A DNA stretch of 64,000 nt from a bacterium UBP6_UBA1177 (GTDB lineage Bacteria > UBP6 > UBA1177), in NCBI GenBank assembly GCA_002310995.1, contig DBYV01000055.1, forward strand, positions 12,596-76,595, in the 5' to 3' direction. The position numbers were made by a program, and so were the translations under genes. The notes below the pieces were generated by a model. That model did no database searches. It saw only the letters and a program-made list of their open reading frames with translations, and was not told the DNA's origin. This document shows positions 1 through 15,271 of the stretch, piece after piece (position 1 is the first letter of the stretch; each line of letters begins with the position of its first letter).

Positions 1-367
1 CGTGCTTTTTGATAAGGTCGTTGTTGTAGTCGTCAGCGCTTGCGCAGCCTACGATACCGTACTGTTCGTGACCGTTCATGACCTGGCGGTAGATGTAAAG
101 ATGAGGTTCCTTGTCCTGAACAAGAACACCTTCCTTCATCATTTTCTGGAAGTTCTCTTTTCCTTTTGCATAGACGCTGTCGTCATAGAGATCGGTTCCT
201 TTCGGAAGGTCGATTTCGGGCTTGTTGATGTGAAGGAATGAGATAGGGTTGTCTTTTGCAAGTTCCCTTGCTTCTTCCGAATTGAGAACGTCATAAGGAT
301 AAGCCGCGACTTTGGAAGCGATTTCGTCACGCGGTCTGATAGCTCTGAAAGGTCTTACTGTTACCAT
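1..367 (-). CDS. DUF1015-family protein, N-terminal 122 codons (gene continues past the left edge)
   Basis: Absent from the ORF track because it is open at the window edge. The reverse complement of 1-367 reads without stops from the ATG at 367-365: MVTVRPFRAIRPRDEIASKVAAYPYDVLNSEEARELAKDNPISFLHINKPEIDLP...HEQYGIVGCASADDYNNDLIKKH. This fits my memory of the DUF1015 N-terminus. A GGGGGA RBS lies 6 nt upstream. Confidence 0.7.
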   Translation of the reverse strand, partial: MVTVRPFRAIRPRDEIASKVAAYPYDVLNSEEARELAKDNPISFLHINKPEIDLPKGTDLYDDSVYAKGKENFQKMMKEGVLVQDKEPHLYIYRQVMNGHEQYGIVGCASADDYNNDLIKKH

Positions 368-443
368 GGATTCCCCCTGAAATTAAAAGTTAATAAACAG
401 AAAACGGCACTTCTTATTATTGTAGCACCTTTTTGTCAAGTCT

Positions 444-522
444 CTAGGAACAGGGAATCTAGGGAATCTAGAGAATCTAATGTCCCTAAACACCCTAGAC
501 ACCCTAAACTCCCTACTCCCTA
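444..522 (-). repeat. 9-bp-periodic TAGGG/CCCTA array (about 9 units) abutting the cysC stop codon
   Basis: Minus-strand reading: TAGGGAG TAGGGAGTT TAGGGTGTC TAGGGTGTT TAGGGACAT TAGATTCTC TAGATTCCC TAGATTCCC TGTTCCTAG. The first TAG (520-522) is the cysC stop codon. On the plus strand, CTA recurs at 459, 468, 477, 486, 495, 504 and 513. Confidence 0.9.
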
Positions 523-1032
523 ACAGTTCAAATAGTTGAGCAGTTTTCTGAAGGATTCATCAACAGTTTCGTTGTCGGTTTTTATGGTGAGCTCAGAATT
601 AAGCGGCGGTTCATAAGGATCGTCGATTCCGGTGAAAGAAGTGATTTCCCCTTTTCTCGCCTTTTTGTAGAGCCCTTTCACATCGCGTTTTTCGCATGTT
701 TCAAGCGAGGTCGCGACATAGACTTCGATAAAATTTTTACACATTTTTCTGACGAAGTCGCGTGATTCGCGGTAAGGCGAAATGAAGGATGCCACAACCG
801 TAACGCCGTTGCGCTCAAGCATTGAAGCAAGAAAACCCATCCGTTTGACATGCTCGTCGCGGTCTTTTTTGGAAAATCCGGTCTGCGGAAAGATGTTCCG
901 CACTGTATCGCCGTCAAGAAGCTCGCATTTCACGCCAGAATTTTTGAGATAACTGACAAGTTTTTCGGCAAGAGTTGTCTTTCCGGCGCCCGAAAGTCCG
1001 GTAAACCAGATGACACGCGGTTCTTCAGTCAT
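520..1032 (-). CDS. cysC: adenylyl-sulfate (APS) kinase
   Basis: 170-aa ORF with P-loop GLSGAGKTT, LDGDTVR, FISPYR and KGLYKKARKGEITSFTGIDDPYEPP. It matches the APS kinase family along its full length. Its start overlaps the upstream ORF by 8 nt. Confidence 0.95.
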   Translation of the reverse strand: MTEEPRVIWFTGLSGAGKTTLAEKLVSYLKNSGVKCELLDGDTVRNIFPQTGFSKKDRDEHVKRMGFLASMLERNGVTVVASFISPYRESRDFVRKMCKNFIEVYVATSLETCEKRDVKGLYKKARKGEITSFTGIDDPYEPPLNSELTIKTDNETVDESFRKLLNYLNC

Positions 1033-1579
1033 TTTTCTCCCCGGCTTCGGTTTTTACGGCGTTTTCATCGGTTTTCGGCGCGGCAGTTTCAGACGGTTCA
1101 GATTCAGTTTCGGCAGGTTTTTGTTCAGGAGACGTTTCAGATGACGTTTCTACAGGTTCTACCGGTTCCGCCTTTTTCTCTTTCGTTATAAAAACCAGCG
1201 TCTGCGGCATAATATTTTTGACATCAAGAGCCGAAAAAGAGGAAGCAAGAAGGCTTTCGTCAATAGTTCTGCTTATCTCACCTGCCTTTTCAGAAGAAAA
1301 ATCAAAATTTATCACCAAATCTTCGTTCTTGATCTTCCTGAGTTCGAAAAAATTACCGTTCACCTTAACTTCGACATGGTCAGTACTGGCCGAAACAAGT
1401 ACCTGATCCGAAGAAATCTTCGTATCAAACCTGACGGAATAGATTCTGGGAATCGGTTTTAAGCAGAATGAAAGCATGAGAAAAACGGCCGCACATGCCG
1501 CTGCAATCGCTTTTTCACGCAGATTATGGGTGAATATCCTTTTAAAGCGTTCCTGTGACGATGAAGTTGTTATGTTCAT
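1025..1579 (-). CDS. membrane-anchored CdaR/YbbR-like protein (putative CdaA regulator)
   Basis: 184-aa ORF starting 9 nt after cdaA. It has one N-terminal TM helix (AIAAACAAVFLMLSF), a beta-rich segment of about 100 aa and an E/P-rich tail. Position and topology fit the regulator that usually follows cdaA. A sequence-level YbbR match was not verified. Confidence 0.5.
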   Translation of the reverse strand: MNITTSSSQERFKRIFTHNLREKAIAAACAAVFLMLSFCLKPIPRIYSVRFDTKISSDQVLVSASTDHVEVKVNGNFFELRKIKNEDLVINFDFSSEKAGEISRTIDESLLASSFSALDVKNIMPQTLVFITKEKKAEPVEPVETSSETSPEQKPAETESEPSETAAPKTDENAVKTEAGEKND

Positions 1580-1588
1580 TTCACCCTC

Positions 1589-2380
1589 CTAAAGTCTGTT
1601 CGAAAGCTGCTGTTTGAGCGCGTCCTTGCTGAGGTCGCGCGTTATTCTGCCGCCGTGGAGAAGCGAAATTTCACCTCTTTCCTCGCTGACAACAATAACA
1701 AGTGCATCGGGAACCTTCTCGCTGATACCGTAAGCGGCGCGGTGCCTCGTTCCGAAGTTCGGGTCAATATCAGGATTTGTGCTGAGTGAGAAAAATACCG
1801 AAGCCCTGGCAATTCTCTTATTTTTGATTATTACAGCGCCGTCGTGCAAAGGGGAATTCTTTTTGAAAATCGTAAGAAGAAGCTCCCTTGTAATGAGAGA
1901 ATCAATCTCCGTTCCCTCGGCTATTGCTCCGATTTTCGCATCGGCAGACGGCATTATTACAACAAGTGCTCCCTCGCGGACTGAGGCAAGATAATCCATT
2001 GCATTTGCTATATGGCTTACAATATCTTCTTCGCCGGAGTACCCTTCCTGCTTCATGCTGATGCCAAGAATACTCATTGAAGCAAGCATGTTCTTGATTT
2101 CATTTCGGAAAACAACAATTATCAGCACTGGAGCATAGAAAAAGAAATTCCCGAGAAACCAAGTGATCCCGGTGAGATCGAAAATCCGGGCAAAAATGTA
2201 AAAAATAGCCAGCAAAGCAAAACCAGCCGTTACCCTGATTGACTTGCTGTCTTTGATTTCGACAAAAAAGAGATAAAAAATGAAATAAATGCAACAGAAA
2301 TCGACTGCCGACTTGAAAATGAAAAGCGGTAGAGAATCGCTTCCCGCGACAGCCAGCAGAAATTCCGAAAAAGTTAACAT
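1589..2380 (-). CDS. cdaA: diadenylate cyclase CdaA (c-di-AMP synthase)
   Basis: Three N-terminal TM helices followed by DAC-domain motifs LHDGAVII, GTRHRAAYGISE and VVSEERGEISL. An AAGGAG RBS precedes the ATG at 2380. Confidence 0.9.
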   Translation of the reverse strand: MLTFSEFLLAVAGSDSLPLFIFKSAVDFCCIYFIFYLFFVEIKDSKSIRVTAGFALLAIFYIFARIFDLTGITWFLGNFFFYAPVLIIVVFRNEIKNMLASMSILGISMKQEGYSGEEDIVSHIANAMDYLASVREGALVVIMPSADAKIGAIAEGTEIDSLITRELLLTIFKKNSPLHDGAVIIKNKRIARASVFFSLSTNPDIDPNFGTRHRAAYGISEKVPDALVIVVSEERGEISLLHGGRITRDLSKDALKQQLSNRL

Positions 2381-2415
2381 GACGGCTCCTTACCTCCAGA
2401 ACAAATAATCATTGA

Positions 2416-2443
2416 ATTTTACGAGTTAAAACTGACAAGTCAA
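2416..2443 (-). promoter_or_regulatory. sigma-70-type promoter cassette copy 1 (upstream of cdaA)
   Basis: Minus strand: TTGACT (2443-2438), 16-nt spacer TGTCAGTTTTAACTCG, TAAAAT (2421-2416), then TCA. Nearly identical to the copies at 6430-6457 and 10370-10397. Confidence 0.55.
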
Positions 2444-2501
2444 ATGAATGGTAAAAAGGATATTTTCTTGTTGGAATCGTTAGAACTGAATATTTCCGAC
2501 T

Positions 2502-4082
2502 TTAGACAAACAGCATCGAACAGCCGTCGGATTTGCTTTTTTTATCGGGAACATCTCCATTTTCACTCTGGGTATCAGTATCAACGGCATCTTCTACATC
2601 AGAATTTCCGGAATCTTCATCGTTTTCACCGCTATCCGAAACATCGCTGTCTGTGTCAGTTTCCCCCGTATCAGAAGTATCAGTATCGTCACCGCTGCTG
2701 TTTTCGCTGTCTCCCCAGTCGATTTCCGAGCAGTTGACATCATTTCCGTTAACTTTAAAACACCGGCATAAATCATCAGCTGTTTCGACATCTTCATAAC
2801 TGTCTACCAGCTCCTGACCTACAACAAGTTCGGCCATCATTGTCAAATTGAATGTTTCTCCGGCCGTAAAATTGATATTGTTCTCGAAAACAACTTGAAA
2901 TTCACCAACACCTGCTTCACCATATTCTGTGGAACCCTGTTTGTTTGAGGCAACAAGGCACTCTCTGGCAAAAACATGACCATCGGTATAACGGTAATCA
3001 TAAACCTGAGTGACAGGGGCAAACGGCATTTTGTCAAGTTCCTCTTCAATCATGTAATTAAGGTAATAAACTGGAATAAGAACAAAAACAAATGTCGAAA
3101 CATAACCTGAGTGGTCAATATCTCCAAGCGCGCTCAATGCCACCCAATTCCTTGTGTCGGGATCTGTATTCTGAATAGTGTATTCATGAAAAAATATGTT
3201 GGAAGAGAGTGTTTTATCTTCCACTCCGACAAGTTCTGCCGTTTCAACTGTTGCGTCATAGAGATTGCTCAGATCCTCACGGTTTATACGTCCTTTTCCT
3301 TTGAATGCGAAATAATGCTCGGCATCGCCGCTCTCAGGGTCAGTATTGTTGTCTTCCCACTCAATCGCCGAGCAGTCAACAGGCGTGTTATCTTGTGGAC
3401 TGGAACATTCACAAAGGTCTTCCAAAGTTTCAGCATCTTCGTAATTGCCAAGGATGTCGTTGCCTGTGACAAGTTCAGCGTTCATTGCAAGAGTGATTTT
3501 TTCTCCAACTGAAAACTCAGTATTTTGACCCTGACAAACTTGAATTTTGCCGACTCCGGCATTGCTGAATTCATCGTTACCGGCCTTTTTGTTTGAGGCT
3601 ATCAAACATAATTTGATGTAATTATTATCTTTGGAAAGAGCAATATCGTAGACTTCGACAACAGGTGCGACCGAAAGAGTGTCAGTATTTGTTTCCTGCA
3701 TGCGTTCAAAATAACTTTGAGGGATACGGGCAAATACAGCTGTTGTAAAATAAGCAGTATCCATGTCTGGATCTCCCAAAGCCGTCAACAGCACGCCGCT
3801 GCCTTCGTTTTCGGAGTCGTATTCCTCAAAAAATGAGAATTCGTCTGCATAATCCAGATCCCTTCCACTGATTCCTACAAGTTTAGGTGTCGCTGACAAT
3901 ACATAATTCGGGTATTCTTCATTCGCTGCATTGATTTGTCCGACACCATTGAATGCAAAATAATGCACTGCATTACTCCCGAGAATCGAGTCATCCATCT
4001 CACACGATGTCTGTGCGGCAAGAAATCCTGATGTAAGTAAAACCGCCGTAAAAATAAAAACCGTGAAAAATAGTTTCTTCAT
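2502..4082 (-). CDS. secreted protein with two tandem ~210-aa modules of an unrecognised domain, an acidic D/T/S tail and C-terminal KSDGCSMLFV
   Basis: A GGAGG RBS lies 7 nt before the ATG at 4082, so the track start at 4106 is less likely. The signal peptide is MKKLFFTVFIFTAVLLTSGFLAAQ. Both modules begin HYFAF.G.G.IN and end DLC.C....V.CS.I.W.D. The tail ends ...PDKKSKSDGCSMLFV. Confidence 0.8.
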   Translation of the reverse strand: MKKLFFTVFIFTAVLLTSGFLAAQTSCEMDDSILGSNAVHYFAFNGVGQINAANEEYPNYVLSATPKLVGISGRDLDYADEFSFFEEYDSENEGSGVLLTALGDPDMDTAYFTTAVFARIPQSYFERMQETNTDTLSVAPVVEVYDIALSKDNNYIKLCLIASNKKAGNDEFSNAGVGKIQVCQGQNTEFSVGEKITLAMNAELVTGNDILGNYEDAETLEDLCECSSPQDNTPVDCSAIEWEDNNTDPESGDAEHYFAFKGKGRINREDLSNLYDATVETAELVGVEDKTLSSNIFFHEYTIQNTDPDTRNWVALSALGDIDHSGYVSTFVFVLIPVYYLNYMIEEELDKMPFAPVTQVYDYRYTDGHVFARECLVASNKQGSTEYGEAGVGEFQVVFENNINFTAGETFNLTMMAELVVGQELVDSYEDVETADDLCRCFKVNGNDVNCSEIDWGDSENSSGDDTDTSDTGETDTDSDVSDSGENDEDSGNSDVEDAVDTDTQSENGDVPDKKSKSDGCSMLFV

Positions 4083-4107
4083 ATAAGCCTCCATAAATAA
4101 GCACAAA

Positions 4108-4136
4108 ATTATAATCTTTTTTTAAGTGTTCTGCAA
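4108..4136 (-). promoter_or_regulatory. putative promoter of the 2502-4082 gene
   Basis: Minus strand: TTGCAG (4136-4131), 17-nt spacer, TATAAT (4113-4108), about 25 nt upstream of the start codon. Confidence 0.45.
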
Positions 4137-4204
4137 CAATATAGATAGCCTAAATCGAGCGTGATAACACGATTTATCTCATTGAAATTTAGGAATATAA
4201 AAGA

Positions 4205-5032
4205 TTAGACAAACAGCATAGAACAGCCGTCCGATTTGCTTTCTTCTTTTTTATTACCGTCTGAAGCATCTTCTTTCGGAGCTTCGGTATTTGCAGTATC
4301 GCCAGCATCAGTATTTGCGGCATCAACTTCTTCTGCGTCAGTACTATCGGCAGTGTCATCTTCCGGTGCCGGTGAAATGACTTCTGTGTCACCATTATCA
4401 CCGGTATCTGCCGTATCAGTGATATCAGTATCAGCAGTATCAACAGTATCTGCTGTGTCCGCTGTATCAACGATATCGCCGCCGTCGTCGGTATCAACGG
4501 TGTCTGCCGTGTCAGCACCATCGTTAGCTTCAAGAGCACATTCTGCACAACATTCGTCTGCGAAATCTACACAATTTTCTTTGAGACATTCATAATCTAT
4601 TTGGGCTCTTTCAAAAAACAAGCAGCAACCATTATAAACCATTTCCTTTGTGCGATTCCATTCGTCTGATTCAACTTCAATTCTTATTTCATCTTCTGTC
4701 ATGTACCCTGTATTGAAAAAATTATTTTTGCAATGTGACCTTTCCGAAGAATAAGTGATGCAGTAATCAAGTTTATCACCGCATTGATTGATAACTGTCG
4801 GTTTCTCTTTGCCGCAATTGTTCTCAAGATACGACTTACAGAGTTCTTCATCAGCTTCCTCGCCGGTCAAATCTCCACTGAGTTTGCCTACTCCTCCGGC
4901 AAGCCTTTGGCAATTACATACATATTCGTTGCCTGAAAGTTTGCAATCTCCGGCTTCATTTTCACATATAACATCCTCTGCAGAAACAAAGAACGAAAAG
5001 AACAAAATTGATAGAAACATAACTTTTTTCAT
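4205..5032 (-). CDS. secreted Cys-rich protein with a (D-T/A) repeat tail and C-terminal KSDGCSMLFV
   Basis: A GGAGGA RBS lies 5 nt before the ATG at 5032. The signal peptide is MKKVMFLSILFFSFFVSA. The body of about 170 aa has about 20 Cys, including CC pairs. The acidic tail reads DTADTVDTADTDITDTADTGD and ends ...KKEESKSDGCSMLFV. No family recognised. Confidence 0.8.
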   Translation of the reverse strand: MKKVMFLSILFFSFFVSAEDVICENEAGDCKLSGNEYVCNCQRLAGGVGKLSGDLTGEEADEELCKSYLENNCGKEKPTVINQCGDKLDYCITYSSERSHCKNNFFNTGYMTEDEIRIEVESDEWNRTKEMVYNGCCLFFERAQIDYECLKENCVDFADECCAECALEANDGADTADTVDTDDGGDIVDTADTADTVDTADTDITDTADTGDNGDTEVISPAPEDDTADSTDAEEVDAANTDAGDTANTEAPKEDASDGNKKEESKSDGCSMLFV

Positions 5033-5069
5033 GGGTTCCTCCAAGATGGAAATGACTAAAAAACGCTGA

Positions 5070-5097
5070 ATTATATTAAATTTGATGGGATAAACAA
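5070..5097 (-). promoter_or_regulatory. putative promoter of the 4205-5032 gene
   Basis: Minus strand: TTGTTT (5097-5092), 16-nt spacer, TATAAT (5075-5070), then TCAGC, the same post -10 context as the cassette copies. Confidence 0.4.
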
Positions 5098-5177
5098 GGA
5101 GGGAAATCAGATTATCCCTTAAACGCCCTGATTGTTTCTTGAGCGGCGGCCTGATGAAATGACTTCGACGATCGCGG

Positions 5178-5195
5178 GACAGCCGTCTGATTTGC
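5178..5195 (-). other. orphan copy of the tag-coding sequence AGCAAATCNGACGGCTGT (SKSDGC) without a gene body
   Basis: Minus strand reads AGCAAATCAGACGGCTGT. It differs from 2520-2537 and 4223-4240 only at the Ser third position. An in-frame TAA lies 2 codons upstream. It sits between the folP stop and the 4205 promoter. Confidence 0.7.
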
Positions 5196-5206
5196 TCTCT
5201 TAAAAC

Positions 5207-6403
5207 TCAAAAAGCCGACGGCTCCTTTAAAGCGTTGAATATTTCCAAAGTATCTTTTGCTTCTTTTACATCGTGGACTCTTATGATTGCAGCACCTTTT
5301 TCCAAAGCGATTGTGTCAAGTGCGACTGTTCCCGCAAGCCTTTCAAACGGATTTTTTCTTCCACAAATCGCTCCGATCATGCTTTTGCGGCTGAAACCTA
5401 GAGCTATGGGATTAAGGCATGAGAAGAAAACTTCCAGATGTTTTATTATCGCCAGATTGTGTTCAAGGGTTTTGCCGAAACCGATTCCCGGATCAATTAT
5501 GATTTTGCTTTCAGGAAGACCTTTTGAAAGGAGCGTTTCTTTTGATTTATTGAAAAAATCGAGCATTTCACTGAACAAATTTTCGTAAACCGGATTTTCC
5601 TGCATATTTTTAGGCGAGCCTTTGATATGGCCGATTACAACAGGCTTTCCCGTATCGGCACAGACTGAAGCCATTTCCGAATCAAAAGTGAGGCCGCTGA
5701 CGTCGTTTATGATCTCAGCCCCGGCGTTTACAGCAGCTTCAGCAACGGAACTTTTCACAGTGTCGATTGAAATCACAGCCTTGGGAAACTGTTTTTTTAT
5801 CTCGCTGATTACAGGAACGACGCGATTTTTCTCGGTTTCAGCATCGACTGAATCACTTCCCGGACGCGTAGATTCACCGCCGACATCAATAATATCGGCG
5901 CCGTTTTCAAGCATTTCGGAAACGTGTTTCAAAGCATCATCGATGTTTGTCCAGCTTCCGCCGTCTGAAAAAGAATCGGGCGTGACATTCAGAATTCCCA
6001 TGATATTCGGGCGTGTCGTGTCGATTCCGGGGTGCGAAAAAGAAAACCACGGCTTCTGCAAGCAGACAAATTTTTCAACAAAATTCGCAACTTGAGTCAA
6101 TTTCCAGCACTGAGCTTTCATGCGTGAGACAAATTCCGGGATTTTGTCGCTTCTCAAAGAAAAAACGAAATCGCTTTTCGGTTTCGAGCAGTTTACAGCA
6201 TGCGCCGGAACCGCAGCTTCTCCGCCGAGCGAAAGAACTTCCTGCTTCACAACATTTGCCGCCGGAGTCGAGATATCGGACACCATGAAAGTTTTTATCG
6301 AAAAACGTCCCCGCATGATCGCTGTTCCCGCTGCGGAAACTCCGATCTTCTTCATCAGATAGGCGTATTCTTCGTCCTGAACATTGAAAGGAAAGACCTG
6401 CAT
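5207..6403 (-). CDS. folP: dihydropteroate synthase with an N-terminal extension of about 125 aa
   Basis: Pterin-binding DHPS motifs IMGILNVTPDSFSDGG, DIIDVGGESTRPG, INDVSG and DPGIGFGK. The extension contains ANVVKQEVLSLGGEAAV, which I recall from other long FolP proteins. Confidence 0.85.
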   Translation of the reverse strand: MQVFPFNVQDEEYAYLMKKIGVSAAGTAIMRGRFSIKTFMVSDISTPAANVVKQEVLSLGGEAAVPAHAVNCSKPKSDFVFSLRSDKIPEFVSRMKAQCWKLTQVANFVEKFVCLQKPWFSFSHPGIDTTRPNIMGILNVTPDSFSDGGSWTNIDDALKHVSEMLENGADIIDVGGESTRPGSDSVDAETEKNRVVPVISEIKKQFPKAVISIDTVKSSVAEAAVNAGAEIINDVSGLTFDSEMASVCADTGKPVVIGHIKGSPKNMQENPVYENLFSEMLDFFNKSKETLLSKGLPESKIIIDPGIGFGKTLEHNLAIIKHLEVFFSCLNPIALGFSRKSMIGAICGRKNPFERLAGTVALDTIALEKGAAIIRVHDVKEAKDTLEIFNALKEPSAF

Positions 6404-6429
6404 TTAAGCCTCAAAACAAAAACCGCTGA

Positions 6430-6457
6430 ATTTTACGAGTTATACTGAACAAGTCAA
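6430..6457 (-). promoter_or_regulatory. sigma-70-type promoter cassette copy 2 (upstream of folP)
   Basis: Minus strand: TTGACT (6457-6452), spacer TGTTCAGTATAACTCG, TAAAAT (6435-6430), then TCA. The -35 begins 2 nt after the stop codon of the 6459-8153 gene. Confidence 0.55.
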
Positions 6458-6458
6458 T

Positions 6459-8153
6459 CTATCTCGCGACACAGCGGACATTACCGCGATCATAGGTTTT
6501 GACAGAATTCATGATTTCGACACCGCTATAGCTGCCGCCGTATGAAATATAACCGGTAAAAACACCCCATGCATAGTCCGGATTATCCGAACGTACGGAA
6601 GATGACCAGAACCAGCTTGAATCACCGAATGTGTTGTATTCGCTGTACTCAGAGTCTTTGTTATTGCACATACAGGATTCTCTGTCTCCGACATCATAAA
6701 CAGAAAGAACGCCTTTTTCCTCGCTTATCGCGCATATTCCTCCGTATTCCGCCTTAGGACACTTTTTGACAAGCGTTCTGAGTTCGTCGATTGTCGGTAT
6801 AAACCACGCCCGGCCTGCGTTTTCCGAATGTCTGAAACAATAATCGACAGCATCTCTCCAATTAATTTTTTCAGAAGACCGTGAAGACCAGACAAGCCCG
6901 CTGGAGTAATCCTTGCACGGAGTCGGACTTTCAGGACTGCATTCCGGCAGATCATTGCTTGCTATACATTTATATCCGTTCCATTTGTATCCCGGAATAC
7001 ACTTAAATCTGCACTCTTTTTTACTTGAAGTCTCGTTGTAAACGCCTGTCAGCGAAGGCTGCCAGGATGAGCCGTCCCAAGTCGAGAATATGTTGGAAAC
7101 GCTGTTCCAGAATGCGTGTTCAGGAAGCCCTTCGCACAGCTGCCGGTGATTGTCGCCCCTGACACAGCGGGCAACACCGTATTCGTTTTTAACTTTTTCC
7201 GCAATACTGCCGGTATAGAGTTCAATACCCCACGCGCTGGCCTCTCTGCCGGAAACCTCTGAAGCAGACCATAGCAGATTCCAGCTTGTATGATTGCTGT
7301 CTATTTTGCTGTAATAACCGTCACTTTTGAGTTCGCATAAATTGCAGTTGTAATTCAGACAATCAGTAGAAAGGCAGCTGTCTGTCACACCGCATCTATC
7401 ACCTGTCCTTGTACCGTGGCAAGCATTAATCAGCGTGCGTGCTTCGCTGATTGAAGGCAGCCTCCAGTCACTGTAACCGCCTTCTGAAAGTTTATCACAA
7501 TAATCGACAGCATCTTCCCAAACCATGGCATTTGATTCTGAAGACCATTCCATGCCGCTGTCTGGATCTTCCCAAGGCTTGCAGCTGTCTGCTGCAGAAT
7601 CACAACCGGCTTTGCATTGCTCCCTGATTTGCCACTTACCGTTAGAACAAATGCGAAGCTTATCGCTTTCACAATGTATTTCCCCCTCTTCTGAAGAGTC
7701 ACAGCCACATTTGCCTGTTGAAGCTATACATTCTGAAAAAGCGCAGTTTTCAATTTTTACCCATATCATTTCGCCGCCGTCTTTATATCCGCAGTAACTT
7801 TTTCCTTTTCGGCACTTATAATCCCGGCAGAAGACATCCTTAGGCAAGGTTTCTTCATATATTGCATCATCTTCTTCAGGTTCATCAACATTTTCCGAAT
7901 CGACATCTTCCAAATCAGCTTCGGCATCATAAGCCTCATCGTCGTCCGGTTCGGTATCATCGGAATAATCTTCATCTCTGACACAGATGTTATGCTCAGT
8001 GTCGCAGATCAGCCCTTCGTTGCAGGTGTTGTTTTTAAAACATTCACCGTAAATTTCACCCTGTTTCCTGTCTGAACCCGAATTGCCGCCACAGCTGACC
8101 ATCATGACAAGCAGAGCCTGAACCGCAAAAATATAAATCATAATTTTTCTCAT
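6459..8153 (-). CDS. lipoprotein with an N-terminal Cys-knot-like motif, an acidic linker, Cys-rich repeats and two DUF1566 (Lcl C-terminal-like) modules
   Basis: Lipobox LLVMMVSC. The N-terminal motif is EGEIYGECFKNNTCNEGLICDTEHNIC. DUF1566 signatures are GYSDWRLPSISEARTLI...ARCVRG and WFIPTIDELRTLV...NVRCVAR. An intermodule motif reads CEGLPEHAFWNSVS...WDGSSWQP...ECRFKCIPGYKWNGYKC. The start lies 4 nt after the upstream gene, and its GAGG RBS sits inside that gene's last codons. Confidence 0.8.
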   Translation of the reverse strand: MRKIMIYIFAVQALLVMMVSCGGNSGSDRKQGEIYGECFKNNTCNEGLICDTEHNICVRDEDYSDDTEPDDDEAYDAEADLEDVDSENVDEPEEDDAIYEETLPKDVFCRDYKCRKGKSYCGYKDGGEMIWVKIENCAFSECIASTGKCGCDSSEEGEIHCESDKLRICSNGKWQIREQCKAGCDSAADSCKPWEDPDSGMEWSSESNAMVWEDAVDYCDKLSEGGYSDWRLPSISEARTLINACHGTRTGDRCGVTDSCLSTDCLNYNCNLCELKSDGYYSKIDSNHTSWNLLWSASEVSGREASAWGIELYTGSIAEKVKNEYGVARCVRGDNHRQLCEGLPEHAFWNSVSNIFSTWDGSSWQPSLTGVYNETSSKKECRFKCIPGYKWNGYKCIASNDLPECSPESPTPCKDYSSGLVWSSRSSEKINWRDAVDYCFRHSENAGRAWFIPTIDELRTLVKKCPKAEYGGICAISEEKGVLSVYDVGDRESCMCNNKDSEYSEYNTFGDSSWFWSSSVRSDNPDYAWGVFTGYISYGGSYSGVEIMNSVKTYDRGNVRCVAR

Positions 8154-8157
8154 TTTT

Positions 8158-10332
8158 CTACCTCACGCAGCGGAAAGTTTGTCCGTATTCCAGCGAACAT
8201 GATTTGATTCCGGCTTCACTGAAATCAATACACCACACATTTTCAAAACCGGATATGATTTTACCGGTTTTTGAAGCAGATGAAATAAGTTCATACATAA
8301 ATTTACTATGGAACTTGCTATAAGCAGCTTCACCGTAACGGCATTTGCAATCTGTTCTTGCCCAGCAGTTGTCTATCAATAGACACTCATCCGTAACACC
8401 GCACACTCCGCCAGGTTCTGTAGCAGGGCAGTTCACGATCAAAGTCCTGAGCTCGCCGATTGTCGGCAGACGCCAGTCATCAATCACTCCTTCGACAAGA
8501 TTGTCACAGTAATTTTGAGCGTCATCAAGCATCATCATTTCTGATGGTTTATCAGACCAGATGAGACCGGTAGCGGAATCTCTGCACGGCATAGGGCTTT
8601 CAGGACCGCACTCAGAAAGAGCTTCAGGGTTTTTCAAAGTGCATTTTGAATCGTTCCACTTATAACCGGGATAGCATTTGAATCTGCATTCGGTTTTGCT
8701 CGGAGTTTCGTTATAGACTCCGGCTGTGCTTGGCTGGCACGATGTCTCGTCGCATGTCTGCAATATGCTTGAAACACTGTTCCAGACCGCATTTTCAGGA
8801 AGTCCGGTACATGGAACATTCACTTTTTTCACGCAGCGGACACTGCCTTTGCTATATACTTCGTCTGTACCGAATGACAGAATTTGAGCTTTATCAAAGT
8901 TCACACCCCACACATCATCAGGGTAATCTGTTAGTTTAGATGAAGATAAAAAATCTCCTTCATCACCGAATTTGCTGTATATGACGTAAATACCCCCGTT
9001 GCCGCCGATACCGTTACAATCATTATCACATTGGCTGTATGAGTATTCGCAAGCTGTTGAAGAAAGGCAGTCATCTGTAATCCTGCAGTCCCCTCCCGTA
9101 ACCGTCCAACGACAGTTCTGAATCAGCGTGCGCAGTTCGCTGATTGTCGGCAGATGCCAATCACTGTAACCACCTTCGACAAGATTGTCACAGTAATCAA
9201 CGGCATCATAGTGTAACATTTCATAAGGAGCCTTCGCAGACCAGACAAGACCGCTTGATGAATCATAGCACGGTGTAGGACTTCCATGGCTGCATTCGGA
9301 AATAGCTTTAAGATCCTGCAAAGCGCATTTCGAACCGTCCCATTTGTATCCCGGATTACATATAAACCTGCATTCAGTGTCACTCGGCTTTTCATTGTAG
9401 GAAGCCGCATCAGCAGGCTGCCAAGACGAACCGTCCCACATCTGCGGAATACTTGAAAAAACGTTCCATGAAGCACCATCCGGAAGTCCTTCGCACTGTT
9501 TCTGGCGTGAATAACTTCCCACGCAACGAATTGTAGCTCCATCCTTAAGAGAAGTGATCCCTATGCTGGCACTGCCGAAACTGACCAACCACAAATCTCC
9601 TCCGTAATCACTTCTGGAAGAAGAGCATAAGGCAACATTCTGATCATCACCTATTTTGCTGTAGTAACCGCCGTTGTCATCAATAAATTCATCTTTTCCT
9701 ATCTGCTGCGTCCACTCGGCTTTCCAGGAACAGTCGCATCTCCACATATCGAGATCATCATACCATGAGAGAGTGCCTGCCTCTTCGCTTATTTTGCAAA
9801 ATCCGTAAGGTTCAGTATCGGGACAATTCTGAATCAGTGTTCTGAGTTCATCAATTGTCGGCATTTTCCAATCGCCAAAACCGCCTTCAACAAGGTTGTC
9901 ACAGAATGAAACGAGGTCATCCAATGTTGCCGGTCCTGGAATTGAATGCTTCTCCGACCATATCAAACCGGTTTTCGGATCTTTCCAGTTTTCATCTTCG
10001 TTTTTTGAAGGGTCAGTATCGTTTTTTTCGTCTGAATCGGAATCTTCATCTGAAATTGTCTCTGACTCCGTGTCGTCATCTGCCTCAGTATTATTGGTAT
10101 CATCAAAATCTTCATTATCCGGAATTTCTGCATCTTCGTCAACAGTATCATCTTTTATGCATGTGTTGCTTTCCGTGTCACAGACCAGTCCGTCATTACA
10201 AGTATTGTTAGGATAACATCTCCCGTAAATTTCGCCTTCTTTTCTGCCTGAATCAGAATTGCCGCATCCTGTTGTCAGAATCAAAAGCACTGAAATTACC
10301 GTAATACAAAAAACTGTTGTGATTTTCTTCAT
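8158..10332 (-). CDS. lipoprotein with three DUF1566 modules separated by the GLP..W(D/N)GS.WQP Cys-rich module
   Basis: The ATG at 10332 follows a GAGG RBS; the track start at 10347 is a TTG. Lipobox ILTTGC. The N-terminal motif is EGEIYGRCYPNNTCNDGLVCDTESNTC. The three DUF1566 cores are GFGDWKMPTIDELRTLIQNC, GYSDWHLPTISELRTLIQNC and IDDWRLPTIGELRTLIVNC. Each module ends in (I/V/F)RCV. Confidence 0.8.
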   Translation of the reverse strand: MKKITTVFCITVISVLLILTTGCGNSDSGRKEGEIYGRCYPNNTCNDGLVCDTESNTCIKDDTVDEDAEIPDNEDFDDTNNTEADDDTESETISDEDSDSDEKNDTDPSKNEDENWKDPKTGLIWSEKHSIPGPATLDDLVSFCDNLVEGGFGDWKMPTIDELRTLIQNCPDTEPYGFCKISEEAGTLSWYDDLDMWRCDCSWKAEWTQQIGKDEFIDDNGGYYSKIGDDQNVALCSSSRSDYGGDLWLVSFGSASIGITSLKDGATIRCVGSYSRQKQCEGLPDGASWNVFSSIPQMWDGSSWQPADAASYNEKPSDTECRFICNPGYKWDGSKCALQDLKAISECSHGSPTPCYDSSSGLVWSAKAPYEMLHYDAVDYCDNLVEGGYSDWHLPTISELRTLIQNCRWTVTGGDCRITDDCLSSTACEYSYSQCDNDCNGIGGNGGIYVIYSKFGDEGDFLSSSKLTDYPDDVWGVNFDKAQILSFGTDEVYSKGSVRCVKKVNVPCTGLPENAVWNSVSSILQTCDETSCQPSTAGVYNETPSKTECRFKCYPGYKWNDSKCTLKNPEALSECGPESPMPCRDSATGLIWSDKPSEMMMLDDAQNYCDNLVEGVIDDWRLPTIGELRTLIVNCPATEPGGVCGVTDECLLIDNCWARTDCKCRYGEAAYSKFHSKFMYELISSASKTGKIISGFENVWCIDFSEAGIKSCSLEYGQTFRCVR

Positions 10333-10369
10333 TTCGGAACCTCGCAAAATTTCTAATTACAACCTATGA

Positions 10370-10397
10370 ATTTTACGAGTTAAGCTGAACAAGTCAA
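10370..10397 (-). promoter_or_regulatory. sigma-70-type promoter cassette copy 3 (upstream of the 8158-10332 gene)
   Basis: Minus strand: TTGACT (10397-10392), spacer TGTTCAGCTTAACTCG, TAAAAT (10375-10370), then TCA. Confidence 0.55.
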
Positions 10398-10439
10398 TGA
10401 GAGGAATTTTCAGAGGTGCTAGCTGACACGTCTTATTAT

Positions 10440-12011
10440 TTATTTGGGAGCGATACCGGGTTTCTGCGCGACTTCGTACCATGTGAAGTTGTCAAGAAGA
10501 ACCATGCTGTCAAGATCGTGGTCTCTTGTATCCCAAATTGCCATTCTGAGTTTGAAATCCTCGCCGGGATTTATGTTTCCGCGGACTTCAAGCCAGCCTG
10601 TCGCGCCATGAGCTTCCGTCATATTTATAGCTCCGCAGCCAGGCGTGGTGAAAGGTGTACCTTTAAGGTCAGCGTCGCCCTGGCAGCTTGGATAAGCCTG
10701 TCTTGGGCAGCAGACATTGAAAAGACCTGATTTTGCAAGATTTATACCGAGCGGATTTTTGTTTCCGTCCATCGCAATATTTTTGTCGGAAGGATTCTGG
10801 AGATTCGGATCTGTTGATGTATAAGCGGTGTCGAGAAGCATAACGAAAAAGTCATTATAGTCGCAGACATACTGAGGGAACTCGCTGCTTATATAGTAAA
10901 CACCGACACCAAAAGCAGCCGCATTCTTCGGAGCACGAACCATCAGTTCGAGCATAACAGGGTCGTTTACCGGTGGCTTCCCCGGATCTCCGCCCGTGTT
11001 TATGAAACCGCCCTGACATGCAGGTGAATCAGGGAAACTTACTCCGCCTACAGCCTGGAACCAGTCTGCCGGAGCATCGCTCGAAGTGTTGTTATCAATA
11101 TGCAGATCATCAGAAGTCGCTACATTTACCTTGCCAGTAGAAAAAGCGAGGAACGAATTTCCAGCCTTCGGAACAAGAACATTTCCGAATTGTCCGAGAA
11201 CCGCGTGCTGCTGAGCCGGAATTTCGCCTTCGGTTCCGTCAGGGAAAAGAAGTTTTGCGCTGAGAACGCCAAAAGTCTGAGTTTCCGTAACAGGACACAG
11301 ATCAATCGACTGAGCCATATCCATAGGATTTGTCGTATCCTGGGCAATCCCTGTGTCACATGCAGAGACAACTTCATCGATCTGGCCGTTACAGTTGTCA
11401 TCTACACCGTTTTCCGGCACTTCAAAAGATGACGGATTTACTTTTTCGGGATCGCCGATGCAGTCCCATGTCGTTTCACAGCAGTCACCCGTGCAATATG
11501 TATAACCATCACCGTCATGATCAACAGCTGCTTCCGGAGTAAGATCATTTCCGTCACAATCCTGGTCTATGCCGTCGCTGCAAACCTCTGATTGCGGCAG
11601 AACCTGACCGCGGCATTCGCTCCAGTCCGTCCCGTCCTCGACACACTCTGCAATACCTTCCTTACATATTCCTACACCTGCCGTTCCACTCGGTCCTTCA
11701 TAGCACGGACGCGTTTCGCCGGGTGTACATGTGACATAAATTCCACCATCGTTGTGATCCGCATCATCATCAGGAATCTGATTACCGTCAGTTGCATCTC
11801 CATCCTGACTCTCGTCAGAAGTGCTGCTGCCGTTTTCATCAGCTTTGCCTTCGTCTCCAGGAGCATTTTCCGGGATACATTCACCTTTCCCGAGATTACA
11901 GGTATAACCTGTACCGCAGTCTTCATTGCTGGAGCATTCATCTCCGCCACCACCGCATGCCGTCACAACAAAAGCCAAAAGTGCAATAAAACCCCAAAAC
12001 ACTTTTTTCAT
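10440..12011 (-). CDS. lipoprotein with MopE-like putative metal-binding Cys repeats and a C-terminal choice-of-anchor-L-like domain
   Basis: A GGAGAA RBS precedes the ATG at 12011. Lipobox VVTAC. The Cys repeats read EVCSDGIDQDCDGND and ENGVDDNCNGQIDE. The C-terminal ~300 aa contain YYISSEFPQYVCDYNDFFVMLLD, reminiscent of the SEEYPE...NDVF core of choice-of-anchor L. That match is from memory and unverified. Confidence 0.6.
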   Translation of the reverse strand: MKKVFWGFIALLAFVVTACGGGGDECSSNEDCGTGYTCNLGKGECIPENAPGDEGKADENGSSTSDESQDGDATDGNQIPDDDADHNDGGIYVTCTPGETRPCYEGPSGTAGVGICKEGIAECVEDGTDWSECRGQVLPQSEVCSDGIDQDCDGNDLTPEAAVDHDGDGYTYCTGDCCETTWDCIGDPEKVNPSSFEVPENGVDDNCNGQIDEVVSACDTGIAQDTTNPMDMAQSIDLCPVTETQTFGVLSAKLLFPDGTEGEIPAQQHAVLGQFGNVLVPKAGNSFLAFSTGKVNVATSDDLHIDNNTSSDAPADWFQAVGGVSFPDSPACQGGFINTGGDPGKPPVNDPVMLELMVRAPKNAAAFGVGVYYISSEFPQYVCDYNDFFVMLLDTAYTSTDPNLQNPSDKNIAMDGNKNPLGINLAKSGLFNVCCPRQAYPSCQGDADLKGTPFTTPGCGAINMTEAHGATGWLEVRGNINPGEDFKLRMAIWDTRDHDLDSMVLLDNFTWYEVAQKPGIAPK

Positions 12012-12048
12012 CACTTTCTCCACTAAAAAAACTTCGAAAAAACAGTAG

Positions 12049-12076
12049 ATTTTATTGAAAAAATATTTTTATGCAA
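12049..12076 (-). promoter_or_regulatory. putative promoter of the 10440-12011 gene
   Basis: Minus strand: TTGCAT (12076-12071), 16-nt spacer, TAAAAT (12054-12049). Confidence 0.45.
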
Positions 12077-12101
12077 CTCAAAAAAGGCCGTACAACCGGA
12101 G

Positions 12102-13808
12102 TTATTTCTTTTTAACCGGAATTTCAAGAATAAACGCCGCGCCGCCAAGCGCCGAATCGCCGATGTAAAGTTTCCCTCCCGCTTCTGTGGCGAGTTTTTT
12201 CGAATGACTGAGCCCTATCCCTGTACCGCCTGGCTTATTGGTGTAGAAATTCTTAAAAACCACTTCACGCTCGCTCTGCGGGACACCTTTTCCAGAATCT
12301 TCAACCGAAATGACGGCAAAATTTCCGTTTCTAGCAATATTTACCGCTATCTTTCCGCCGTTTTCAAGTTCTTCCCACGCATTTTTCAGCAGATTGAGCA
12401 TAATTTCCTTGAATGACGAGATGGAAATCGAAATCGAAAGAGGCTCGCTCTTCCCGACTGTCAGCTCGATATTCCTCTTCTGCAGTTCCGGAAGATGGAA
12501 TGAAAGAAATTCTATCAGATCGGAAGGAAGCGACACTCCGTGTTCACTCTCACCGTTCCTGTTGTAATTAACCATCCCCATATATTTGTTCGTAATCTGC
12601 TCAAGCCGTTCGACTTCGTTCACGACAAGAGAAAGAAGCTGTTTTTTCTCATCAGATTCCGTTTTTTCTACGTTGTTGAGCAAATAAGTGCTGTTCATCT
12701 TGATAGTGTTCAGCGGATTTCTGATTTCGTGAGTGATTCTGGCTGCCATCTCTCCTATTGAAGCAAGACGCTCCGAATTCAGCAGTTTGCTCGAAAGCTC
12801 TTCGGATTTGGTTATATTCCTTATAATATAAAAAGTTTCATTCTGCCCTTGAGAGACAGACAGCTGATAAGTCTCTTCGCCGCTTGAAAATTTGCCTTCA
12901 GAGCCGTCAGTTCCGATTTTGTCAAAAACGGTTTTTACATCTTCACCTATCGCTGAACCATCCACTCCGAACCAGTCTTTCATGGTTTTATTCACAAAAG
13001 TCACATGTCCGGATGCAGCCGCAGAAAGCCCTTCCGGAATGGCATTGAGAAGATCCTCTTTCCTTTTTCCGACAATCTGCTCCCTGGCGAATTTCTTTCC
13101 GAGTTCGTCGAATTCTGCACTTTTCGCATCGGTCAGTTTTTTTATCTCTTCAGCAGCAGCATCTGCCGAAGCGTTCTCTCCGACACCTATCAGAGCAAAC
13201 AGCTTTCCCATATTCTTATTCTTTCTGAAAATAAGAACAGTCATGACAACTGTTATCAGAAGAAAGAGCGCTGAAACAGCTATAACAGTTTTGTTTATGA
13301 AGTCATGCCAAACAAAGTAGCTGTATTTCAAAATACCGAGTTTCTGTCTTGCCGCGAGATCAATCATATCTTTCAAAGTCGAGATATCACCCCTCAAAGC
13401 CGCAATAATCTGAGCCCTTTCCTCCGCATCAGATTCAGCAAGACGTTCGCCTCCGGCTGAAATTTTTCCGGCGAAATCACCTATCTTCACGGCAAGATGT
13501 TCTCCGCTTTCATTTTTTACCAAAGAAACATTTCTGCCTAATGACCTTAAAGATGTTAACAGAAAATCGTTAAGATGCCCGTTATTCTCAGCATTTTCTC
13601 CCGTTCCGTCCATGAACTTCCCGTAAAAAACAACAAAGTTATCAAGAGAATCAAGTTCAGCCGAGAGATTTCCTGCATGAACAAAAAATGATCTGTCTTC
13701 TTCAATCGCATCACTCAGAAGATCTGAATCTGTAAAATTAAAACAGACAAAAAGAAACAGAAAAAATGAAAATAAAAGAGGTAAAAAAATTAGGAACTTA
13801 TTCTTCAA
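12102..13808 (-). CDS. sensor histidine kinase (orphan; no adjacent response regulator)
   Basis: H-box SIGEMAARITHEIRNPLN and HATPase_c boxes NLLKNAWEE, DSGKGV and GGTGIGLS. Two TM segments bracket a periplasmic region of about 150 aa. A PAS-like segment precedes HisKA. Confidence 0.85.
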   Translation of the reverse strand: MKNKFLIFLPLLFSFFLFLFVCFNFTDSDLLSDAIEEDRSFFVHAGNLSAELDSLDNFVVFYGKFMDGTGENAENNGHLNDFLLTSLRSLGRNVSLVKNESGEHLAVKIGDFAGKISAGGERLAESDAEERAQIIAALRGDISTLKDMIDLAARQKLGILKYSYFVWHDFINKTVIAVSALFLLITVVMTVLIFRKNKNMGKLFALIGVGENASADAAAEEIKKLTDAKSAEFDELGKKFAREQIVGKRKEDLLNAIPEGLSAAASGHVTFVNKTMKDWFGVDGSAIGEDVKTVFDKIGTDGSEGKFSSGEETYQLSVSQGQNETFYIIRNITKSEELSSKLLNSERLASIGEMAARITHEIRNPLNTIKMNSTYLLNNVEKTESDEKKQLLSLVVNEVERLEQITNKYMGMVNYNRNGESEHGVSLPSDLIEFLSFHLPELQKRNIELTVGKSEPLSISISISSFKEIMLNLLKNAWEELENGGKIAVNIARNGNFAVISVEDSGKGVPQSEREVVFKNFYTNKPGGTGIGLSHSKKLATEAGGKLYIGDSALGGAAFILEIPVKKK

Positions 13809-15072
13809 TCTCGCCCGAGACCGCAGTGTCGCCCGCTTCGAGAGCGGTGATGCTGTTTGTAATGATTGCTACGGAAGTTTTTTCAGCAACCTGAATAACG
13901 ACAAGTTCTCCGATCATTTCGTAAGGAAGACCGGCCGGAGACGATTTGCCCTCAAATTCTTTAAGACCGTCGCCCTTTCTGTAAACAGAGAGCATAACGC
14001 CTTTTTCAACACCGTCGTCGCTACCTTTATCAAGGTAAACAATGTAGTTGGGACCATAGAAGAAAGTCGGGTCATAACCGGTGAGAATCTTCGCTCTGAT
14101 GTCAGAAGCGGGTTCTGTAACCTTTACGCTGTCTTCCGTCGGAACATATTCGCGGACATAGAAACCGCGCTCGATAGCATCGTAAGATTTTACGATTTTA
14201 ACGGTAGCAATCTGTGTGTCTTTGTCGTCATCATCATCGTCTTTCTTCTTTTTGCCGATATCGAGAACTTTTCCTCTGCCGACTATATCAACGATAGAAC
14301 CAATTTTATCACCGGTGTCTGGATGTTTGATTGTTTCCTTGACATTGATGATTTCAACATAATCGCCGATCTGGAAATGGGGTTTCTCCTTCTTCTTTCC
14401 GTCCTTGTCTTCCTCTTCATCTTCATCGTCACCAAGTTCGACATAGATGTTATCGCCGGTTGAGAGGAGCTCTTTCGGCTCGAATGAAGCGATTATTTTC
14501 GCCATTTTTTCTTCTTCGGTATTGCCTACAAAACCTTTCTGAACTACATCAAAAATGGTGTCGTCAATCTGTTTGAACCTGTCAACCCTGTATTTGCCGC
14601 CCAGTTTTACATAACTTTTGTAACTTTCTGGCGTAGCATCAAGCGTTTTTCCGGTCTGAGCAAGAGAATCAGTCTCGCCTTCGTCCTCATATTCGGCACC
14701 TGATTCGCTGTATCCGCTCTCGTCAGCATATCCGCCGTTCGCACCTGCTCCTTCTTCGCCGGGCATCATCATTTCACCGGTCGGACGGAAAGAGATTTTG
14801 TCACCGGGATAAATTCTGTGCGGGTTCTGGATCTGCGGGTTAAGAGACCATACTTTAGGCCAGTACCACGGACTTTTAAGCTCTTTTTCGCTTATATCCC
14901 AAAGCGTGTCACCTGGCGCAACTTCATAAGTTTCAGGAGCGGCACTAAGGTCTACATTGTCGAGATTGATAAAATCTGGAACCGGAACTTCTTCAGCGCT
15001 TGCCGGTGGAACTTCTTCAGCAAACATAAGAGTCGAAAACATCAAAACGAAAGCAAAAATCATCGTTTTCAT
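13798..15072 (-). CDS. secreted LysM-domain protein with D/E/K-rich linkers
   Basis: An AAGGAG RBS precedes the ATG at 15072. The signal peptide is MKTMIFAFVLMFSTLMFA. The LysM motif is YEVAPGDTLWDIS...NPHRIYPGDKISF. The stop overlaps the kinase start by 11 nt. Confidence 0.75.
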   Translation of the reverse strand: MKTMIFAFVLMFSTLMFAEEVPPASAEEVPVPDFINLDNVDLSAAPETYEVAPGDTLWDISEKELKSPWYWPKVWSLNPQIQNPHRIYPGDKISFRPTGEMMMPGEEGAGANGGYADESGYSESGAEYEDEGETDSLAQTGKTLDATPESYKSYVKLGGKYRVDRFKQIDDTIFDVVQKGFVGNTEEEKMAKIIASFEPKELLSTGDNIYVELGDDEDEEEDKDGKKKEKPHFQIGDYVEIINVKETIKHPDTGDKIGSIVDIVGRGKVLDIGKKKKDDDDDDKDTQIATVKIVKSYDAIERGFYVREYVPTEDSVKVTEPASDIRAKILTGYDPTFFYGPNYIVYLDKGSDDGVEKGVMLSVYRKGDGLKEFEGKSSPAGLPYEMIGELVVIQVAEKTSVAIITNSITALEAGDTAVSGEIEE

Positions 15073-15271
15073 CGAAAACTCCTTATATCTAATCATAAGA
15101 TCAAACAAAATAGCCGGGTCATATTACGCAAAAACGCGATTTTGTCAATTTAATTAAATACAATCTACTGAAAATATGAGATTTTTCGATTTTCAATATT
15201 AATAAACAGGGCAAAATTCCAATTTTTCACCTTTTTCATATAATCTTTAAGTGTGTTCGACGGAGGTAAAA

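Follow-up and report, generated by a model that had tools for sequence, protein, structure and literature searches.

A nonamer-repeat hairpin behind cysC in a UBP6 bacterium, probably a gene-less copy of a dispersed element that brackets a mobile four-helix-bundle gene

Introduction

Among the short repeats that lie dispersed in bacterial intergenic DNA, the repetitive extragenic palindromic (REP) sequences of Enterobacteria and Pseudomonas, together with their composites (bacterial interspersed mosaic elements, BIMEs, and the REP doublets called REPINs), offer a close parallel to the locus described here. They are short hairpins that are enriched at the 3' ends of genes and tolerated in operons; they far outnumber the one gene associated with them, the REP-associated tyrosine transposase (RAYT), which is itself flanked by the repeats; and they vary by presence and absence at the orthologous sites of close relatives. 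Another parallel is given by the intervening sequences that encode S23p in the 23S rRNA genes of Leptospira and Coxiella (Ralph & McClelland 1993, as cited in PMC3936711). The protein family PF05635 resembles both the open reading frame (ORF) of these intervening sequences and Avd, a protein of diversity-generating retroelements (DGRs) (PMC10053308, PMC3936711). In this study, we analysed a 64,000-nucleotide stretch of the bacterium UBP6_UBA1177 (contig DBYV01000055.1 of assembly GCA_002310995.1, positions 12,596 to 76,595; hereafter the window), in which an array of 9-nucleotide units, running first in one orientation and then in the other, fills much of the spacer between the adenylyl-sulfate kinase gene cysC and a DUF1015 gene. 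We propose that this array is probably a solo, gene-less copy of a dispersed, REP-like nonamer-hairpin element that elsewhere brackets a mobile gene for a four-helix-bundle protein.

The nonamer hairpins share with the REP/RAYT system all the traits listed above. They differ from it in being tandem arrays in two inverted blocks and not single imperfect palindromes of ~20-40 nt with a 5' GTAG (the outer (G)TAGGGAG heptamers of the arrays resemble this GTAG, a resemblance only), in flanking a non-enzymatic-looking gene (PF05635/TIGR02436 plus TIGR04258) and not an HUH Y1 transposase, and in having a unit, TAGGGAATT, that is common to several phyla. With the S23p intervening sequences they have in common a PF05635-superfamily ORF placed between stem-forming inverted repeats and the behaviour of a selfish element; unlike these, the nonamer cassettes lie between protein-coding genes and not in rRNA, their flanks are nonamer arrays each of which is its own hairpin, their protein has the suffix domain TIGR04258 in addition, and they also occur as solo copies without the gene. 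The short tandemly repeated repetitive (STRR) heptamers of cyanobacteria are likewise dispersed, intergenic and of unknown function, with a very short tandem unit that has a run of G at its core, and they too occur head to head with the G-rich part first (a Stigonema locus, L074), but they belong to another phylum, have a period of 7 and not 9, and showed no link to a four-helix-bundle gene in the cyanobacterial loci fetched; STRR membership of the nonamer arrays was rejected on the contrast between their period of 9 throughout and the heptanucleotide units. Like solo long terminal repeats (LTRs) and miniature inverted-repeat transposable elements (MITEs), the gene-less copies contain nothing of a larger mobile unit except its terminal repeat, and they are more numerous than the full unit; in contrast to these, they have no target-site duplication, transposase or integrase, and their termini are built of repeats. 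Intrinsic terminators, finally, share with the cysC array a stem-loop directly past a stop codon, whereas the nonamer element has no U-tract, an AT-rich stem of ~40 bp and copies within operons.

Full-text literature searches on the repeat units and their dimers, on the units seen in Bacteroidales, on Alistipes and telomere-like repeats and on the protein family returned no account of the arrays or of an association with the gene. Elements of this kind are familiar, both as dispersed hairpin repeats with a flanked gene and as an S23p cassette of selfish character between inverted repeats; what appears to be new is the construction of the hairpins from nonamers, the fixed polarity with the G-rich arm first, a partner without a recognisable enzymatic domain, and the distribution across phyla.

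The array between cysC and the DUF1015 gene

Read in the sense of cysC (minus strand of the window), the spacer carries five TAGGGNNNN units (480-522) and then three inverted units (453-479). The former, which make up the G-rich 5' arm of a hairpin, are TAGGGAG (516-522), TAGGGAGTT (507-515), TAGGGTGTC (498-506), TAGGGTGTT (489-497) and TAGGGACAT (480-488), the outermost being a 7-mer. The C-rich 3' arm consists of TAGATTCTC (471-479) and two copies of TAGATTCCC (462-470 and 453-461), which on the plus strand read GGGAATCTA twice and then GAGAATCTA; TGTTCCTAG (444-452) stands directly after the last unit. The first TAG of the array is the stop codon of cysC (520-522). An earlier note, made from the letters alone, had described both this anatomy and the fusion to the stop codon, and our reading of the sequence and the ORF call (520-1032) agree with it base for base. 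Tandem Repeats Finder (TRF) places period-9 arrays at 452-479 (AGGGAATCT, 3.1 copies) and 484-515. The pattern TAGGGN4TAGGG occurs five times in the window against an expectation of 0.04, a count reached by none of 100 shuffles, and all five matches are confined to the cysC array and to a second array at 16974-17018. Whichever strand of the cysC array is read, the G-rich arm comes first. The outer ends of the arms change from 9-nt to 7-8-nt units (TAGGGAG TAGGGAG at 516-522/507-515 in the window), and in relatives they carry CCCTAC/GCCCTAC runs (cassette flanks L457 and L453).

The array was found in identical form in six independent metagenome contigs and is therefore not an assembly artefact. 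Contigs of strains from cattle, sheep and gut metagenome runs of 2020-2024 carry it unaltered, and no copy-number polymorphism was found among near-identical strains.

On the cysC strand, RNA of positions 436-530 is predicted to fold into one long imperfect hairpin (-46.4 kcal/mol, z -4.98, with none of 200 shuffles as stable). This predicted RNA (or single-stranded DNA) hairpin has ~40 pairs between 442 and 526, single-base bulges each 8-9 pairs and a loop at 481-485, and it bears out the long imperfect hairpin that the earlier note had offered as an alternative fold. The opposite strand folds less well (-21.9 kcal/mol, z -1.1) because mismatches that are G·U pairs in the cysC-strand RNA become A·C there.

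The absence of a standard class, also suggested earlier, was upheld. No Rfam family matched at E <= 1 within 1-20000, apart from an unrelated weak hit. A CRISPR array was rejected, since the units are 9 nt long without spacers, against repeats of 23-47 nt with unique spacers. The tryptophan-attenuation protein TRAP requires 9-11 (G/U)AG triplets spaced by 2-3 nt, and the proposed TRAP-type site fails on this point, for the array has eight UAG triplets spaced by 6 nt (4 nt after the first). CsrA recognises GGA in a loop or single strand, and its sites usually overlap the ribosome-binding site; the GGGA motifs of the cysC array are paired inside the predicted stem.

A gene bracketed by period-9 hairpins

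In three metagenome-assembled genomes (MAGs) of the UBP6 clade (L346, L360 and L365), an ORF of ~190 amino acids lies between TAGGG arrays. Its product is a four-helix bundle with a 'suffix' domain (PF05635, TIGR02436, TIGR04258); the PDB entry related to it in sequence is 2GSC, and its AlphaFold model (pLDDT 83.6) matches 2GSC and 2RLD only, both of the S23p family. The association is not restricted to this clade: a 49%-identical homologue in Alistipes has TAGGG hairpins on either side, and homologues in Prevotella and in a bacterium of the candidate phyla radiation are flanked by period-9, G-first hairpins of the units GTAGGTTTT and ATAGGGATG. The canonical order is hairpin, ~100-nt spacer, gene, and a hairpin that starts at the stop codon.

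For an unbiased test of the association, 80 metagenome loci were fetched by their protein alone and scanned with TRF. Arrays of period 9, 18 or 27 occupy 69 of the 108 gene-adjacent spacers and 4 of the 74 spacers elsewhere in these loci (odds ratio 31, p = 6e-17), and period-10 arrays occupy another 17 of the 108. The flank units vary by lineage (TAAAGACCC, TAAGGACCT, ATTAGGCCA, CATAGGACC and others) while the period stays constant. In the wider family, the polarity of the arms around the gene is unreadable for most Bacteroidales units (TTAAGGWCC), which are self-complementary; the hairpin centres of some cassettes consist of such TTAAGGWCC units, which links the TAGGG-type and the Bacteroidales-type repeats. 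Relatives of the suffix-domain protein number more than 7,000 clusters (90% identity) at E <= 1e-20. Many gene-carrying contigs are only ~1-1.5 kb long and many arrays lie at contig ends, so the arrays probably break short-read assemblies. By a reading of their flanks only, several cassettes (L384-L387, L409) appear to be located within operons of type I restriction-modification systems, where they follow an hsdM/hsdS-like 3' end; defence-system models found no match to the suffix protein.

Movement of the cassettes and dispersal of the arrays

Cassettes whose proteins are 85-94% identical occupy five different neighbourhoods within the UBP6 clade. DNA alignment of L346, L360 and L365 confines the homology to the array-gene-array unit, and none extends past the outer array edges; one match, for example, covers 811 bp at 90% identity between unrelated flanks. 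More cassette pairs, 80-98% identical, also have non-homologous flanks, with breakpoints that lie 90-280 nt before the gene and 10-110 nt behind it. No orthologous empty sites for the UBP6 cassettes were found among the fetched loci.

Arrays without the gene are widely dispersed. A first generic pattern, three times TAGGGN4, was discarded as too unspecific, since it matched many unrelated phyla. The degenerate three-unit pattern TAGGGWRTYTAGGGWRTYTAGGG identified more than 118 loci among the matches listed, mostly in Alistipes and Tidjanibacter MAGs from herbivore guts and otherwise in UBP6-clade MAGs and Oligosphaeraceae. The matches to a C-ending variant of the pattern were listed in full and comprise 49 loci, of which each UBP6-clade MAG has 1-5. 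The hosts are thus UBP6-like rumen bacteria, Rikenellaceae and Lentisphaerota. The earlier note had named arrays scattered over many unrelated intergenic sites, in the manner of REP sequences, as the outcome that would tell against its regulatory reading, and this is what the searches found. Possible members of the same system are at least nine (TAGGGAGTC)n loci, which the C-ending variant also returned, in an unrelated soil Blastocatellia MAG, SSF51 (L351, L354, L357, L358, L361, L367), and the (TAGGGAGTT)3-5 arrays that a group of IMG/VR viral contigs (L312-L340) carries beside conserved flanks.

Across 259 arrays in 148 loci, the period is 9 without exception (in three long arrays the middle is masked as N, at L253 ~3932-4041, L290 ~7791-7917 and L365 ~3507-3575, and lengths are underestimated there). 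Neighbouring arrays follow the order G-rich arm, then C-rich arm, in 56 cases against 2 (p = 1e-14), and both exceptions are artefacts of self-complementary units. The spacers that contain arrays are convergent, co-directional and divergent in 38, 49 and 13 cases, against a baseline of 105, 380 and 105, which is an enrichment between convergent genes. Arrays lie within 15 nt of a stop codon on 21 of 156 3'-adjacent sides and within the same distance of a start codon on 1 of 100. In Tidjanibacter they lie inside the ftsW-murG-murC-ftsQ cluster and consequently cannot be strong terminators.

Orthologous sites in relatives

The window derives from an uncultured bacterium of the rumen, and the genomes nearest to it are RGIG10122, RGIG9961, RUG11946, two deer MAGs and UBP6 MAGs. 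In the cysC/DUF1015 spacer, RGIG9961 has the array expanded to 6 G-units and 13 C-units; RUG11946 and Reindeer_2_mag_13 have no array, and their cysC ends at a conserved TTGACA box; and RGIG10122 has a different insert. In the alignment of the orthologous spacers, the array-less relatives retain the TTGACA and the sequence from CAATAATAAG on. At the second site, downstream of a cysD-like gene, the TAGGG array is common to the window and RGIG9961, while RGIG10122, RUG11946 and the reindeer MAG each have a different short-repeat hairpin, all of them upstream of the same conserved T-rich sequence. These comparisons provide evidence that the arrays at both sites are lineage-specific insertions in spacers of fast turnover and not conserved regulators. 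A cysC-specific regulation, as the earlier note envisaged, does not fit with an array that is missing or replaced in three relatives and expanded in a fourth.

Repeats of other kinds were observed in the same spacers. The window has at 15941-16086 a hairpin of another REP-like family, CGCGCCG...(GATACCGT-type octamers)...CGGCGCG, and this family also occupies the cysD-downstream site of RGIG10122 (L127, ~700-880). A composite repeat, GTCATTCTGAGC...GAAGAATC plus the palindrome AGAGACGTTTCAGGAAACGTCTCT, lies at 23687-23769 of the window and at ~10508-10610 of L127, and a related copy of this composite stands in place of the nonamer array in the RGIG10122 cysC/DUF1015 spacer. CGTAACG/CGTGACG octamer repeats, present at 33006-33051 and 15928-15991, occupy the cysD-downstream site in RUG11946. 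The 3' spacers of the clade hold several interchangeable families of short-repeat hairpins.

Origin and possible role of the cysC copy

In the scheme that we favour, a full cassette consists of two directly repeated nonamer hairpins around the four-helix-bundle 'suffix' gene and changes its genomic position. Before the window's organism and RGIG9961 diverged, one hairpin would have been inserted between the end of cysC and the promoter of DUF1015, and it would have supplied the present stop codon. Such solo hairpins might arise when the two hairpins of a cassette, being direct repeats, recombine with each other, like solo LTRs, which would account for their fixed polarity, or they might spread independently in a REP- or MITE-like manner. 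There is no gene remnant between the two arms of the cysC array, a point against the scheme, since the array would look the same as a solo remnant or as an independently spread hairpin. On the cysC transcript the stem would be a generic 3'-end structure, that is, an exonuclease block or an RNase III-type processing site, and would insulate cysC from DUF1015. The stems of S23p-encoding rRNA intervening sequences are RNase III substrates, and by analogy with these and with REP stems such a generic 3'-end role is most plausibly what the structure has on the cysC mRNA; we infer that the array is not a sulfur-specific regulator.

The window's organism appears to possess the gene as well. A gene-carrying contig, 92% identical to that of UBA1196, has depths of 21.7, 85-87, 111.6 and 9.55 in runs X1, X3, X4 and X5, where the window locus has 21.3, 99-111, 127-139 and 9.82, and run X1 contains at least six other array-bearing contigs at depth 17-20. 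This suggests that the organism carries one cassette and several solo hairpins.

It is important to consider that several further observations weigh against this origin or this role. The cysC array has the period-9 TA(G/A)(G/A)G core and a G-rich 5' arm and lacks the adjacent PF05635/TIGR04258 gene of a cassette; the gene is absent from the whole 64-kb window, and the sole indication of a cassette in this organism is the depth co-variation of short contigs. At the cysC site, spacer alignment revealed neither a target-site duplication nor defined ends, and domain, defence-model and structure searches found no recognisable transposase or recombinase encoded by the cassette. Arrays are dense in Rikenellaceae, where some flanking of genes is expected by chance. 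The second array of the window has no inverted arm and no significant fold. As for a function at the RNA level, 12 of 22 co-directional pairs are more stable on the sense strand, the G strand of single arrays in the clade is the sense strand 14 times and the antisense strand 12 times, and the cassette hairpins are mixed in sense and antisense stability; assembled RNA contigs cover DUF1015 and arrays elsewhere, and the cysC-array spacer lies outside their coverage. A general RNA-level selection of the strand was rejected, since the difference of the window copy (-46.4 against -21.9 kcal/mol) is not matched by a family-wide preference for the sense strand.

A broader proposal, which we advance tentatively and hold to be possible but still less than likely, is that the nonamer hairpins and the suffix protein form a two-part system that crosses phyla. 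The four-helix-bundle protein is pentameric in solved relatives, and Avd binds nucleic acid and reverse transcriptase. The protein, which has no recognisable enzymatic domain, would recognise the hairpins on DNA or RNA. It would either spread them with the help of a recombinase or reverse transcriptase recruited from the host, in the way of Avd in DGRs, or use the copies throughout the genome as processing or insulation sites. Genes of the S23p/Avd-like four-helix-bundle family are among the commonest unexplained small bacterial genes, and the proposal, if true, would give this very large family a function, REP/RAYT-like without a transposase. The nearly constant bracketing by period-9 hairpins, the movement of the cassette and the gene-less copies supply a concrete nucleic-acid partner for the family, and the association sets up a testable REP/RAYT-like model. 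Gene-less hairpins occur in intergenic DNA, including the interiors of operons, of rumen and gut bacteria from at least three phyla, and an array of this sort can be misread as a regulatory element of whatever gene precedes it, as with cysC.

Alternative explanations

A putative role as distributed binding sites of the four-helix-bundle protein, with one contact per unit, could be added to the solo-copy origin; it is conceivable and, as the evidence stands, rather unlikely. The self-flanked gene would then parallel a RAYT gene with its REPs or an autoregulated operator, and the cysC copy would be a protein-bound site on DNA or RNA. The tight association of gene and arrays speaks for it, as do the constant period (9, or 10 in a subfamily) combined with a lineage-dependent unit sequence, the sharing of units between solo arrays and local cassette flanks in the UBP6 clade and Alistipes, and the invariant polar residues R, N and E of the protein, which recall the previously noted family motif GxxRxxxSxxxNxxE (PMC3936711); relatives of Avd are DGR accessory proteins needed for retrohoming (PMC10053308). 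Co-variation of unit and protein is, however, equally expected from co-inheritance, and a spacing of 9 bp does not fit the helical repeat.

The array could also be a locally evolved terminator or mRNA stabiliser produced by replication slippage, with no mobile cassette involved. Its position right after the stop and ahead of the next promoter, its strong sense-strand hairpin, the enrichment of the family between convergent genes and the different hairpin or repeat that each relative has upstream of the conserved T-rich stretch at the second site would all suit this explanation. We nevertheless find it improbable: no U-tract follows the stem, after which the sequence reads CUUGACAAAAAGG, and a terminator scan did not return the array, copies lie within an essential operon, the same units recur at unrelated loci and in other phyla, the polarity is fixed, and close relatives have the same spacer without an array.

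Another mechanism would derive the 9-nt period from 9-bp target-site duplications that accumulated as the cassette was repeatedly inserted and excised by a transposase acting in trans. A period fixed at 9 (10 in a subfamily) with free unit sequence is what it predicts, the cassette is mobile, and the arrays that flank the gene share one orientation in some Bacteroidales loci (such as L375 and L385). It leaves the inverted arm and the fixed polarity unexplained, no transposase was found beside the cassettes examined, and no terminal inverted repeats beyond the arrays; we give it little credence.

The likeness to a G-quadruplex or telomere, which the earlier note had raised, holds only in part. 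The array has five G3 tracts with loops of 4, 6, 6 and 6 nt, within the sequence rule of four or more G3 tracts and loops of 1-7 nt. In computation, however, the minimum-energy fold of ViennaRNA with the quadruplex model switched on stays the -46.4 kcal/mol hairpin, and the G arm alone reaches ~-8.6 kcal/mol, so the quadruplex is not the favoured fold. The telomere-type likeness failed on a period of 9, a chromosome-internal position and copies within operons. In a variant of this explanation, a telomerase-like reverse transcriptase would extend both 3' ends of a break, which then fuse; the G-first, head-to-head polarity is as expected from fused 3'-extended arrays, and the human 2q13 telomere fusion has the same polarity. 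Descent from cassette hairpins explains the polarity equally well, many members have the same architecture with units that lack G3 tracts (TAAGGACCT, TAAAGACCC), and no reverse-transcriptase gene was noticed beside the cassettes, where no systematic search was made; the explanation is very improbable.

The least probable explanation, a multimeric site for a TRAP- or CsrA-like RNA-binding protein that co-regulates sulfate-activation genes, draws on the repeated UAG and GGGA motifs and on the position of both window arrays after cysC and a cysD-like gene, and it is largely refuted by distribution, since none of ~230 other array-bearing loci has cysC or cysD beside the array, bar the orthologous sites of RGIG9961, and relatives are without the array at the cysC site and have repeats of other kinds at the cysD site, besides the unmet TRAP spacing and the burial of the motifs in the stem.

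Neighbouring genes and other features of the window

The gene upstream of the array, cysC (520-1032, minus strand), was identified as an adenylyl-sulfate (APS) kinase by PF01583 (1.7e-56) and TIGR00455, and its coding part outside the array covers 523-1032. Downstream, on the same strand, lies the 5' part of the DUF1015 gene (1-367; PF06245, 1.1e-42), which starts at 367 and is cut by the edge of the window. A consensus scan gave a putative promoter for it, with a promoter-like TTGACA at 434-439 and a putative extended -10 element, TGCTACAAT, at 419-427 (both minus strand); these elements (419-439) lie right after the cysC array.

The second array (16974-17018, plus strand) has a single orientation, TAGGGAATT, TAGAGAATC, TAGGGTGTC, TAGGGAATT, TAGGGATTT; TRF places it, with period 9, at 16973-17015, and the sequence confirms the link to the cysC array that had been pointed out before. 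It begins 5 nt past the stop codon of the cysD-like gene (16087-16968; NF003587, 352 bits). Both nonamer arrays of the window thus stand directly 3' of sulfate-activation genes, a pairing that we treat as a coincidence or a quirk of the lineage.

Elsewhere in the window, a promoter-like ~30-mer (TTGACT-N16-TAAAAT) occurs ahead of genes in three copies (2416-2443, 6430-6457 and 10370-10397). The segments between these copies, 2391-5217 and 6457-10361, are missing from the aligned relatives, which suggests that they may be a window-specific insertion or duplication of secreted-protein genes. At 62820-62899, a repeat of 33 nt (CACAAAGTCAAGGCATTTTTT...) is present in 2.4 tandem copies in a short spacer and may represent iterons or operator sites.

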